Positions 1 to 50,138 of a stretch of DNA of 64,000 nucleotides are shown in pieces. Below the pieces are notes generated by a model, which worked only from the letters and a program-made list of their open reading frames with translations, did no database searches and was not told where the DNA came from. The stretch comes from Mobula hypostoma. Lineage: Eukaryota. Made by a program: the position numbers and the translations under genes. How positions within the stretch are numbered: position 1 is the stretch's first letter; each line of letters opens with the position of its first letter. The stretch lies in contig NC_086107.1 of the NCBI RefSeq assembly GCF_963921235.1, positions 94,490,001-94,554,000 on the forward strand, read 5' to 3'.

Positions 1-169
1 TTTAACTAACATCTTTTCGGTCTTTTAAAGTTTATTTTAATTTTTATCTTTTTATTTTCATGTTTGCACTTTATCCCATTGCAAAGCACTTTGAACTACA
101 TTGTCTGTATAAGAAGTGCTCGATAAACCAAGCAATTATTATTATTATTAACATTCTAAAGAGGAAATG

Positions 170-45960: not shown

Positions 45961-46934
45961 GCCTTCGCTGGACAGGAATGAGGTCCCAGATGACTGGAGG
46001 ACAGCTAGCGGAGTCTCCCTTTACAAGAGAGGGGGAGCACAGCAGCATCGCGGTTAGCGGAACGCCACTACAGTGCTGCAACCTGGGTTCAACTCCCGCC
46101 GCTGTCTATAAGGAGTTTGCACCTTCTCTGTGGGTTTCCTCCGGGCGTCTCACATTCCAAAGATCTACGGGCAAACAGTTTAATTAGTCACATGGGTGTA
46201 ACTGGGTGGCACAGCCATCGTTGGGCTGTAAGGGCCTGTTACTGCACTGTGTCTCTAAATAAACATGTGAGGTATTTAAAATTACCAGCAGTGATAAATA
46301 GGCAGCTTACAAGAAATTCTCCCCCCTCTCAGAGGTAGATAAAATTGGACAACATAGGTCATGGCAAAAGGAAAGAGGTTCAGAGGGGATCTGAAGGTCA
46401 CCTTCTTCAGCCAGCGGGTGGGGAGTACCTGAAATGCACTGCCTGGGAGAGTGGTCAGGGCTGGGTCACTGACGGTACTGAAGTATCTGAATGAACCCTT
46501 GAACCTCTTACGCATGGGTTGCTATGGATCAAATGCTGGCCGATGCAGTTAGCATGGAAGGGTTCCCAATGGCTGGTAAGAACAAATTGGGCTGAATGGC
46601 TGGCATGAACAAGTTGGGCCGAATGGCCTGCTTCCATACTGTATGGCTCTATGAGAGCATAGAGAGGCATCATGATTAGCACAAACGGCCTGTTCTGTGC
46701 TGTGCAATTCTAGAATTTAACCTTCTGAAAAGCAGATGCAAATCATTCCCCTGTAACTTTAATAATCTCTCATATAACCCTCCATTTTTCTTTCATCCAA
46801 GTGCCCAAGAGTCCCTTAAACGTCCCTGATGTATCTGCAACTACCACCATCCCTGGCAGCATGTTCAACGCACTCACCACTCTCTGTAAAAAAAAACACA
46901 ACTTCACCTTCTGAAATGCAGATGTAAAAAATTC

Positions 46935-49900
46935 CACTTGAATCCTAGGGGGACCAATATCCTGGCAGGGAGATTAGCGGGGGCCACTGAGGTGACTTTA
47001 AACTAGAATGGTTGGGGGGTGGGAATCAAATTAAAGAGGCTAGGCGTGAGGAGGTTAGTTCACAACAGGGGGATGGGAACCAGTGCAGAGAGACAGAGGG
47101 GTGTAAAGTGAGGGTAGAAGCAGAAAGTACAAAGGAGAAAAGTAAAAGTGGCAGGCCGACAAATCCAGGGCAAGCATTAGAAAGGGCCACTTTTCAACAT
47201 AATTGTATAAGGGCTAAGAGAGTTGTAAAAGAGCGCCTGAAGGCTTTGTGTGTCAATGCAAGGAGCATTCGTAATAAGGTGGATGAATTGAAAGTGCAGA
47301 TTGTTATTAATGATTATGATATAGTTGGGATCACAGAGACATGGCTCCAGGGTGACCAGGGATGGGAGCTCAACGCTCAGGGATATTCAATATTCAGGAG
47401 GGATAGACATGAAGGAAGGGGAGGTGGAGTGGCGTTGCTGGTTAAAGAAGAGATTAACGCAATAGAAAGGAAGGACATAAGCCGGGAAGATGTAGAATCG
47501 ATATGGGTAGAGCTGCGTAACACTAAGGGGCAGAAGACGCTGGTGGGAGTTGTGTACAGGCCACCTAACAGTAGTAGTGAGGTCGGAGATGGTATTAAAC
47601 AGGAAATTAGAAATGTGCGCAATAAAGGAACAGCAGTTATAATGCGTGACTTCAATCTACATGTAGATTGGGTGAGCCAAATTGGTAAAGGTGCTGAGGA
47701 AGAGGATTTCTTGGAATGTATGCGGGATGGTTTTTTGAACCAACATGTCGAGGAACCAACTAGAGAGCAGGCTATTCTGGACTGGGTTTTGAGCAATGAG
47801 GAAGGGTTAATTAGCGATCTTGTCGTGAGAGGCCCCTTGGGTAAGAGTGACCATAATATGGTGGAATTCTTCATTAAGATGGAGAGTGACATAGTTAATT
47901 CAGAAACAAAGGTTCTGAACTTAAAGAGGGGTAACTTTGAAGGTATGAGACGTGAATTAGCTAAGATAGACTGGCAAATGACACTTAAAGGATTGACGGT
48001 GGATATGCAATGGCAAGCATTTAAAGGTTGCATGGATGAACTACAACAATTGTTCATCCCAGTTTGGCAAAAGAATAAATCAAGGAAGGTAGTGCACCCG
48101 TGGCTGACAAGAGAAATTAGGGATAGTATCAATTCCAAAGAAGCAGCATACAAATTAGCCAGAGAAAGTGGCTCACCTGAGGACTGGGAGAAATTCAGAG
48201 TTCAGCAGAGGAGGACAAAGGGCTTAATTAGGAAGGGGAGAAAAGATTATGAGAGAAAACTGGCAGGGAACATAAAAACGGACTGTAAAAGCTTTTATAG
48301 ATATGTAAAAAGGAAAAGACTGGTAAAGACAAATGTAGGTCCCCTGCAGACAGAAACAGGTGAATTGATTATGGGGAGCAAGGACATGGCAGACCAATTG
48401 AATAATTACTTTGGTTCTGTCTTCACTAAGGAGGACATAAATAATCTTCCAGAAATAGTAGGGGACAGAGGGTCCAGTGAGATGGAGGAACTGAGCGAAA
48501 TACATGTTAGTAGGGAAGTGGTGTTAGGTAAATTGAAGGGATTGAAGGCAGATAAATCCCCAGGGCCAGATGGTCTGCATCCTAGAGTGCTTAAGGAAGT
48601 AGCCCAAGAAATAGTGGATGCATTAGTGATAATTTTACAAAACTCGTTAGATTCTGGACTAGTTCCTGAGGATTGGAGGGTGGCTAATGTAATTCCACTT
48701 TTTAAAAAAGGAGGGAGAGAGAAACCGGGGAATTATAGACCGGTTAGCCTAACGTCGGTGGTGGGGAAACTGCTGGAGTCAGTTATCAAGGATGTGATAA
48801 CAGCACATTTGGAAAGAGGTGAAATGATTGGACAAAGTCAGCATGGATTTGTGAAAGGAAAATCATGTCTGACGAATCTCATAGAATTTTTTGAGGATGT
48901 AACTAGTAGAGTGGATAGGGGAGAACCAGTGGATGTGGTATATTTGGATTTTCAAAAGGCTTTTGACAAGGTCCCACACAGGAGATTAGTGTGCAAACTT
49001 AAAGCACACGGTATTGGGGGTAAGGTATTGGTGTGGGTGGAGAATTGGTTAGCAGACAGGAAGCAAAGAGTGGGAATAAACGGGTCCTTTTCAGAATGGC
49101 AGGCGGTGACTAGTGGGGTACCGCAAGGCTCAGTGCTGGGACCCCAGTTGTTTACAATATATATTAATGACTTGGACGAGGGAATTAAATGCAGCATCTC
49201 CAAGTTTGCGGATGACACGAAGCTGGGTAGCAGTGTTAGCTGTGAGGAGGATGCTAAGAGGATGCAGGGTGACTTGGATAGGTTGGGTGAGTGGGCAAAT
49301 TCATGGCAGATGCAATTTAATGTGGATAAATGTGAAGTTATCCACTTTGGTGGCAGAAATAGGAAAACAGATTATTATCTGAATGGTGGCCGATTAGGAA
49401 AAGGGGAGGTGCAACGAGACCTGGGTGTCATTATACACCAGTCATTGAAAGTGGGCATGCAGGTACAGCAGGCGGTGAAAAAGGCAATGGTATGCTGGCA
49501 TTTATAGCGAGAGGATTCGAGTACAGGAGCAGGGAGGTACTACTGCAGTTGTACAAGGCCTTGGTGAGACCACACCCGGAGTATTGTGTGCAGTTTTGGT
49601 CCCCTAATCTGAGGAAAGACATCCTTGCCATAGAGGGAGTACAAAGAAGGTTCACCAGATTGATTCCTGGGATGGCAGGACTTTCATATGAAGAAAGACT
49701 GGATGAACTGGGCTTGTACTCATTGGAATTTAGAAGATTGAGGGGGGATCTGATTGAAACGTATAAGATCCTAAAGGGATTGGACAGGCTAGATGCAGGA
49801 AGATTGTTCCCGATGTTGGGGAAGTCCAGAACGAGGGGTCACAGTTTGAGGATAGAGGGGAAGCCTTTTAGGACCGAGATTAGGAAAGACTTCTTCACAC

Positions 49901-50138
49901 AGAGAGTGGTGAATCTGTGGAATTCTCTGCCACAAGAAACAGTTGTGGCCAGTTCATTGGCTATATTTAAGAGGGAGTTAGATATGGCCCTTGTGGCTAC
50001 GGGGGTCAGGGGGTATGGAGGGAAGGCTGGGGCGGGGTTCTGAGTTGGAGGATCAGCCATGATCATAATAAATGGCGGTGCAGGCTCGAAGGGCCGAATG
50101 GCCTACTCCTGCACCTATTTTCTATGTTTCTATGTTTC
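46935..50138 (+). mobile_element. Young 5'-truncated CR1 LINE: end of ORF1, near-complete ORF2 (APE endonuclease + RT) with one frameshift, 3'UTR and (TTTCTATG)n tail
   Basis: ORF1 tail HLNPRGTNILAGRL...TLN* (46935-47006); ORF 47012-49507 with GITETW, YRPP, SDHN, GVPQGSVLGP, KFADD; continues in ORF 49492-50043; octamer tail about 50118-50138. Confidence 0.97.

Follow-up and report, generated by a model that had tools for sequence, protein, structure and literature searches.

The window analysed here is the whole stretch of 64,000 nucleotides (nt) of Mobula hypostoma DNA found on contig NC_086107.1 (NCBI RefSeq assembly GCF_963921235.1, positions 94,490,001 to 94,554,000 of the forward strand), and it contains a copy of a CR1-like long interspersed nuclear element (LINE). 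The first open reading frame of this element (ORF1) ends on the slippery heptamer U_UUA_AAC and a stop codon, while the second (ORF2), which encodes an endonuclease and a reverse transcriptase, opens in the -1 frame at the same place and lacks an AUG there. The best reading of this arrangement, to which a probability of about 0.7 can be given, is a conserved -1 ribosomal frameshift through which ORF1 and ORF2 would be translated as a fusion. This proposed mechanism appears strongly supported by comparison at the level of the family and of the clade, and -1 frameshifting is the simplest account of a U_UUA_AAC that is phase-locked, synonymously constrained and situated where an AUG-less -1 frame opens. 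A preliminary description of the window had proposed that this CR1 makes an ORF1-ORF2 fusion in the style of gag-pol; the proposal is supported at the level of the family, given the conserved heptamer, the AUG-less -1 ORF2 and a conserved run of G residues, but it does not hold for the copy in the window.

The ORF1-ORF2 junction

In the window copy, the junction reads GAG GTG ACT TTA AAC TAG AAT GGT TGG GGG GTG GGA (Table 1). The heptamer stands in the phase of ORF1, whose stop codon ends at 47006, and the -1 frame is open from 46991 to 49507, a total of 838 codons. Codon 218 of ORF2, which starts at 47642 and falls within the endonuclease, is the first in-frame ATG; the triplet at 47012 is TTG, and the ATG at 47008 leads into the third frame, where it opens an ORF of 8 codons that is not ORF2. 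On the 3' side of the heptamer, a GG begins after 6 nt and a run of six G after 10 nt. In these respects (ORF1 ending in ACT TTA AAC TAG with the heptamer in phase, the -1 frame open from 46991 without an ATG before 47642, TTG at 47012, and a G-rich tract 6 nt 3' of the heptamer) the preliminary description was borne out. What it had called ORF1 is a stop-to-stop frame of 38 codons (46890-47006), and no more than the final 24 of these are part of the element. The junction peptide, given as ...EVTL/F-KLEW..., was mis-stated, and canonical tandem slippage would produce ...EVTLN-LEWLGGG... instead.

As in a canonical eukaryotic -1 site, the heptamer is in phase with the upstream ORF, the -1 ORF overlaps it and remains open onwards, and the signal is conserved at synonymous sites in diverged relatives. 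The stem-loop or pseudoknot that such a site carries about 5-9 nt after the heptamer was not found.

The complete ORF1 can be seen in full-length copies of the element (L007, L009, L017 and L021), in which the frame upstream of the TAG is open for 341 codons. From its first Met, the protein has 311 residues and ends in ...ATEVTLN*, the last codons being again ACT TTA AAC TAG. It contains CxxC...CxxC motifs followed by an SGNH/GDSL esterase (Pfam PF13472, E 6e-17), as is characteristic of ORF1 in CR1 and CR1-like elements, and it matches the PDB entry 4c1b, 'ORF1-encoded protein', with an E of 1.4e-28. The GDS, G, GTND and DGxH blocks of the esterase are conserved in an alignment of 36 ORF1 homologues, and a coiled coil is presumed by analogy with the ORF1 protein (ORF1p) of ZfL2-1. 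An esterase domain in the ORF1 of CR1 was reportedly recognized by Kapitonov and Jurka in 2003. In the full-length copies, the first Met in the frame of ORF2 lies once more inside the endonuclease (VIMGDFN).

LINEs with an esterase ORF1 are a major part of this genome of 3.5 Gb. A first look within it gave 29,326 candidates with the Pfam model of the esterase, 7,241 with the family B junction and 97,371 with an ORF1 like that of family C.

Conservation among the families of the genome

The element in the window belongs to a family, here called family A, that was sampled in 58 copies including that of the window. The heptamer TTTAAAC is intact in 54 of the 58 and the TAG in 57; the spacer AATGGTT is found in 56. 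The G-run reads GGGGGG in 48 and differs in the other copies by point substitutions; a single copy carries seven G, and none has one G fewer. Because no G-run in family A is shortened, the ATG at 47008 is out of the frame of ORF2 family-wide: the position is in the wrong frame in 58/58 copies (57 ATG, 1 ATA). The preliminary description had proposed that a family consensus with one fewer G would bring this ATG into frame with ORF2 and favour reinitiation, and the claim of an AUG-less ORF2 survives that test at the level of the family.

The same description had suggested that consensus sequences be inspected for an in-phase TTTAAAC followed by a stop and for the lack of an ORF2 AUG. The first feature recurs in families A-F of this genome; the second is confirmed in families A, B, C and D and fails in E/F. 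Family B (TTTAAAC TAG AATTGTT GGGGGG) keeps the heptamer in 19 of 22 copies, the others having TTTAAAA (two) or TTCAAAC (one), and has ATT in place of an ORF2-frame AUG; its copies are about 93% alike and are 76-80% identical to family A at the junction. Family C, which is decayed (TTTAAAC TAA ATAGTA GGGGGG; heptamer in 11/13), and family D (TTTAAAC TAA TTTGGCA GGGGG; heptamer in 4/4, with TAA as the stop in three copies and GAG in one) likewise have no ORF2-frame AUG by the stop. In family E/F (TTTAAAC TAATG TGGCA GGGGG; heptamer in 3/3) such an AUG is present, as UAAUG. Over families C-F, the heptamer is intact in 18/20 copies. A cassette made of UUUAAAC, a stop codon, about 7 nt and G5-6 occurs in about five CR1 families of the genome, of which A and B are young and C is old.

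In family B (L052, L055 and L061-L080), codon 12 of the -1 frame, 36 nt after the heptamer, is TGA in eight, CGA in five and CAA in one of the 14 copies that can be read in frame, a further copy being frameshifted. This TGA was considered as a refutation of an open -1 frame and rejected, since CGA/TGA polymorphism among copies is the result of CpG decay after insertion. Such decay mimics a premature stop when one or two copies are read.

Family A itself looks like a chimera, judging from its sequence at 47040-47100 and from L138-L140, of a B-like junction and an E-like 5' region of ORF2. The junction and roughly the next 50 nt are B-like, and from about 47066 the sequence is E-like (...QGDGNKCRETEGCK...). 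The E-like region has a second G5, and the heptamer and UAAUG of family E are absent from it. In contigs of sequencing runs, family-E-like loose ends join at 47066/47067.

Conservation in distant relatives

The alignment of 36 ORF1 homologues led to 40 metagenome loci with 24-52% identity in ORF1. Among these, 23 stop before the end of ORF1, two are rearranged (L115 and L119), and 17 junctions are readable. The cassette is present in all 17, and in 14 of them TTTAAAC is exact and followed by TAG, TAA or TGA; the inexact junctions are TTTAAAC AAG (L117), GTTAAAC TAG (L087) and TTTAAAT TAC (L093). The opening of the -1 frame lies 3-15 nt upstream of the heptamer in most lineages, and in six loci (L081, L082, L084, L087, L091 and L092) this frame remains open for 403-502 codons after it. 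Exo_endo_phos was found in the -1 translation of all six loci tested, 40-93 residues after the heptamer. An ORF2-frame AUG lies near the stop in L103 (UAAUG) and in L081, L085 and L091 (UAGnnAUG). A search of viral contigs gave no relatives.

Among 17 lineage representatives anchored on the heptamer, pairwise identity averages 0.35 over the 60 upstream nt, 0.70 from the heptamer to +25, and 0.30 downstream, the flanks being close to random (Table 1). The residue that precedes the Leu varies (A, S, C, H, Y, T, G or D) and its codon always ends in U; the Leu is always UUA, a codon used for 32/204 Leu elsewhere in these ORF1s, and the Asn is always AAC, used elsewhere for 25/71. Given this codon usage, x-L-N would be spelled NNU UUA AAC by chance with a probability of about 0.013 per lineage; with the spelling kept in all lineages examined, the heptamer appears to be conserved beyond chance. 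Overlap coding was rejected as the cause of the constraint, since the F-K codons of the -1 frame need a ribosome that is already in that frame, and there is no upstream start.

The reach of the cassette can also be followed in proteins. Among the 120 ORF1 homologues listed, 84 end in -LN. When the C-terminus is taken as intact if block V of the esterase lies 15-45 residues from the end (n=81), this ending is found in 74, and in 66 of the 74 its distance from the Asp of DGxH is exactly 26 residues; the seven exceptions are -IN, -VN, -GN, one read-through and three truncations. The residue that precedes LN is G, A, T, S, C, Y, D, F or I, for which an NNU codon is possible, in 82/84, and E in two. 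Under the names given by their sources, these homologues come from rays, skates, sharks, coelacanth, frogs, turtles, squamates, alligator and hummingbird.

Some of the records carry names that have nothing to do with LINEs. P0027, P0063, P0064 and P0020 are CR1 ORF1 homologues recorded under other names: '40S ribosomal protein S24 isoform X2', 'transmembrane protein 204 isoform' and, for Pseudomonas aeruginosa, an 'SGNH/GDSL hydrolase' that is 61% identical to the vertebrate LINE protein described here. These are probably fusions of gene models with a LINE and contamination of a bacterial assembly.

The proposed frameshift and its stimulator

Under the frameshift reading, most ribosomes would read ...Leu-Asn and terminate, releasing ORF1p. 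A minority would slip back one base on U_UUA_AAC, the tRNA-Leu moving from UUA to UUU and the tRNA-Asn from AAC to AAA, and would resume with CUA in the -1 frame. The product would be a fusion of ORF1p and the ORF2 protein (ORF2p), ...TLN-LEWLGGG..., of about 1,300 residues, made in the fashion of gag/gag-pol. The stop codon always adjoins the heptamer, which suggests a role for it within the signal: unshifted ribosomes may be slowed by it, or it may do no more than fix the C-terminus of ORF1p.

The candidate 3' stimulator is the conserved run of five or six G. The G tract pointed out in the preliminary description is conserved at a fixed distance, although it does not form a G-quadruplex in general: all that is kept on the 3' side is a plain stretch of five or six G at a distance of 10 nt from the heptamer (9 nt in family C and L085, 7 nt in L087), and L082, L084 and L086 each carry one G6 run only. 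If UUA occupies the P site, the run would lie at about +17 to +21, which we take to be near the leading edge of the ribosome, at the entrance of the mRNA. A minority of 3' stimulators start 12-15 nt from the shift site (Atkins et al. 2016, PMC5009743; this and the other sources cited by PMC number are drawn on in excerpt), and the likeness of the G-run to these distant stimulators may be a resemblance only. A hairpin, CCAGGC...GCCUGG, is found about +35 to +58 from the heptamer in four lineages only (L085, L091, L092 and L097), where it shows some compensatory-looking changes.

A wider proposal can be put forward tentatively, with the odds clearly against it. The esterase-ORF1 CR1 LINEs of jawed vertebrates might share an ancient UUUAAAC-stop-N7-G5 cassette in which the linear G-run at the mRNA entrance, in place of an RNA fold, acts as a stimulator through a host protein that binds it, or through ORF1p. 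This would be a trans-activated -1 frameshift of a cellular retroelement that sets the ratio of ORF1p to ORF2p, with a fusion of esterase, endonuclease and reverse transcriptase as the active enzyme.

Several observations weigh against frameshifting at this junction. The 134 nt that start at the heptamer fold with -13.7 kcal/mol, no better than shuffled sequences (z = +1.18), and RNAalifold gave 0.0, -3.8 and 0.0 kcal/mol in three lineage groups, with no structure shared among them: neither the own-genome group nor that of L082 has a common helix, and the L085 group has a weak hairpin about 28 nt downstream. On these results, a conserved stem-loop or pseudoknot was rejected. When G-quadruplexes were allowed in ViennaRNA, one was predicted in 3/17 lineages, and the G-quadruplex was rejected as a general stimulator. 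To our knowledge, a linear G-run is not an established stimulator of -1 frameshifting. The metagenome lineages, in which the flanks are randomised while the cassette is kept, are not fully independent, and the evidence from named species is confined to proteins. An in-frame AUG 2-5 nt after the stop, or UAAUG, in some lineages suits termination-reinitiation. Lastly, a missing AUG is no sufficient argument for frameshifting, because ORF2 of human L1 has been reported to be translated without need of its AUG (Alisch 2006, cited in PMC3708506).

Alternative explanations

Termination-reinitiation is the alternative that survives best, and it is nonetheless rather unlikely. Ribosomes would finish ORF1 and a fraction of them would restart in the frame of ORF2, at an AUG or at another codon, with the G-run holding or positioning the post-termination ribosome. 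This explanation fits a stop codon that is always directly at the junction, and a restart AUG is indeed present, as UAAUG, in E/F and L103 and, as UAGnnAUG in the ORF2 frame, in L081, L085 and L091; the ORF2-frame AUG is confined to these lineages, and the young families A and B, like the old C and like D, have none near the stop. Reinitiation gives no reason for the synonymous conservation of NNU UUA AAC, and a shift-prone heptamer is not something that it requires. The G-run, moreover, is downstream of the stop, inside the terminating ribosome or at its entrance, unlike the tethering motifs of caliciviruses, which lie upstream. A precedent is given by SART1, with UAAUG plus a downstream structure, and reinitiation has been proposed for L1, for whose ORF2 the mechanism is called unclear (PMC3708506). 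Frameshifting and reinitiation could coexist.

A second alternative, which is very improbable, is that the cassette is conserved for a role other than the translation of ORF2 (for example as an RNA or DNA signal in packaging, transcription or binding of ORF1p), and that ORF2 is translated by non-AUG initiation or by internal entry on the linker. TTTAAA is also TATA-like, and near-cognate codons do occur, namely UUG at 47012 in family A, UUG UUG in family B and AUU in family D; these near-cognates are not conserved, however, and there are none in family C or L082. Such a role would also leave aside that in every lineage the motif keeps a fixed phase with respect to both the ORF1 stop and the opening of the -1 frame, and that the -1 frame is open from the heptamer to the endonuclease, over 40-93 codons, in all intact copies.

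The idea that the frame offset stems from a mutation in this copy or from an error in a homopolymer, as the G6 run is, and that the ATG at 47008 is truly in frame has a negligible chance of being right, being refuted by the absence of a copy with one G fewer among the 58 of family A, by family B, which has no ATG at that site, and by contigs of four sequencing runs from four organisms, in which no indel was reported across 46991-47107 (these contigs lose rare variants and have no bearing on expression, and the RNA status of runs X11 and X17 is a guess).

Two other candidates were set aside. A mini-intron of 15 nt (GTGAC...CTAG) is too short, and its GT is absent in family B; transcriptional slippage at the G-run could not bypass the upstream UAG, and the contigs just mentioned, within the limits given, show no indel.

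The element copy in the window

The features of the copy and the columns of the lineage alignment are listed in Table 1. The homology with 29 other copies, found by a DNA search in the same genome, starts at 46932, and most of the other copies share sequence upstream of this point, into ORF1. The window copy is 5'-truncated because its homology begins there while most others extend upstream. Within ORF2, the AP-endonuclease occupies about 47294-47863 (PF03372/PF14529) and the reverse transcriptase about 48713-49357 (PF00078), the combination that characterizes CR1 and CR1-like elements. The frame of ORF2 is broken between 49363 and 49507, near the boundary of ...AVKKA and NGMLAFI.... Because of the 5' truncation and this break, the copy is non-functional; it is a relic that cannot make the fusion, and any mechanism applies to its family.

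Table 1. Features of the CR1-like element copy and its junction (positions in the window), and conservation by column in 17 lineages anchored on the first heptamer base
Feature	Position	Strand	Remarks
5'-truncated dead copy of a CR1-like LINE (family A)	46932..50138 (end approximate)	+	Homology limits against other genomic copies
Last 24 ORF1 codons, SGNH/GDSL esterase C-terminus (...HLNPRGTNILAGRLAGATEVTLN)	46932..47003	+	Match to full-length ORF1
TGA closing the -1 (ORF2) frame	46988..46990	+	6 nt upstream of the heptamer
ORF2, first open segment: linker, AP-endonuclease and reverse transcriptase	46991..49507	+	-1 frame; Pfam
Slippery heptamer U_UUA_AAC	46997..47003	+	X_XXY_YYZ phase of ORF1
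ORF1 stop UAG	47004..47006	+	Directly 3' of the heptamer
Spacer of 7 nt, variable, with ATG 47008-47010	47007..47013	+	ATG in the +1 frame relative to ORF1
G6 run, candidate 3' stimulator	47014..47019	+	Core of five G (+17..+21, counted from the first base of the heptamer) kept in all lineages
Second G5 motif (CAGGGGGATGGGAAC)	47068..47072	+	Matches the family E junction minus the heptamer; marks family A as a chimera
ORF2 C-terminal part, other frame	49363..50043	+	Two overlapping open frames
3' hairpin (GGUGCAGG...CCUGCACC)	50077..50115	+
3' microsatellite, 8-nt repeat (TATTTTC TATGTTTC TATGTTTC)	50116..50138	+	End of the element
Heptamer, lineage alignment	columns 0..6		Conserved in 16-17 of 17
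Stop codon, lineage alignment	columns 7..9		Conserved in 15-16 of 17
Spacer, lineage alignment	columns 10..16		Variable
G run, lineage alignment	columns +17..+21		Conserved in 16-17 of 17
Downstream flank, lineage alignment	columns beyond +21		Variable

The 3' end of CR1 elements consists of a hairpin followed by a microsatellite (PMC8665684), and the window copy ends in this way. The label CR1-like is used here to leave room for a placement in either CR1 or L2. Just 5' of the truncated copy, at 46560-46660, there is a fragment like the 3' end of another CR1-like element (GGGCCGAATGGCCTGCTTCC...CTATGA), which resembles the hairpin at 50090-50110 and is preceded by a partial duplicate, GGGCTGAATGGCTGGC. 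This region looks like LINE tails that are nested or placed side by side.

Significance and comparison with known systems

Among LINEs, CR1 predominates in birds and reptiles, and homologues of the ORF1 described here extend from sharks to birds. If the frameshift is real, the ORF2p of CR1 would be made as a fusion to ORF1p, unlike that of L1; the annotation of 'intact' CR1 elements should allow for a -1 junction; and a G-run at a spacing of 10 nt would represent a novel type of stimulator. Should reinitiation operate instead, the conserved cassette still defines its signal. The scale of the question is illustrated by the chicken, in which CR1 makes up 11.8% of the model chromosomes (PMC11835228).

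The translation of the second ORF in bicistronic LINEs has been called 'not clear' (PMC3708506). No link of CR1 to a slippery site or to -1 frameshifting was found in a search of the literature; the original papers on chicken and turtle CR1 lie outside that search. In the excerpts of a survey of avian CR1, frameshifting is not mentioned and 'intact' is defined by ORF2 alone (PMC8665684), and those of a large review of recoding consider, among non-LTR (long terminal repeat) elements, only HeT-A, TART and mammalian LINEs (PMC5009743). The esterase domain of ORF1 matches that of ZfL2-1 ORF1p (PDB 4c1b; Schneider et al. 2013, PMC3905857; E 1.4e-28), with what would be the same architecture of a coiled coil and an SGNH esterase; no mention of a frameshift or an overlap was found in the excerpts of that paper.

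The element can be compared with several known systems. The coronavirus ORF1a/1b junction uses the same U_UUA_AAC, in vertebrate cells, with a polymerase ORF downstream in the -1 frame (PMC8499926); here, in contrast, the stop comes directly after the heptamer, and instead of a pseudoknot or a conserved helix there is only a G5-6 run 10 nt downstream. In a sample of animal LTR elements, 28/51 have pol in the -1 frame with heptamers (Atkins 2016, PMC5009743).

In retroviral and LTR gag-pol, as would be the case here, the protein of the first ORF is produced in excess, and rare slippage at the end of that ORF yields the reverse transcriptase as a C-terminal fusion. The differences are that the element described here is a non-LTR element, that its ORF1p is an esterase and not a Gag, and that it has no protease and no base-paired stimulator. 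Frameshifting by -1 at UUUAAAC and fusion in the style of gag-pol are both textbook phenomena. In Rous sarcoma virus, the heptamer A_AAU_UUA directly abuts the UAG of gag, so that the heptamer adjoins the zero-frame stop as it does in CR1. There are also -1 stimulators that depend on proteins and lie 11-15 nt downstream, for example arterivirus nsp1beta/PCBP on a C-rich motif and cardiovirus 2A; the parallel is one of resemblance only, the motif here being a G-run with no known binding factor.

Among LINEs, a parallel for the mechanism is provided by TRE5-A and TRE3-A of Dictyostelium, APE-type elements in which a -1 frameshift is required for ORF2 (PMC5911963). They belong to another clade and another host, and the excerpts describe no cassette conserved across several hundred million years. 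SART1 of Bombyx and human L1 share with CR1 a bicistronic RNA in which the start of ORF2 is tied to the stop of ORF1, and the UAAUG of the former is also seen in family E/F (PMC3708506). In contrast to both, most of the CR1 lineages compared here are without an in-frame AUG, and all of them keep the shift-prone heptamer.

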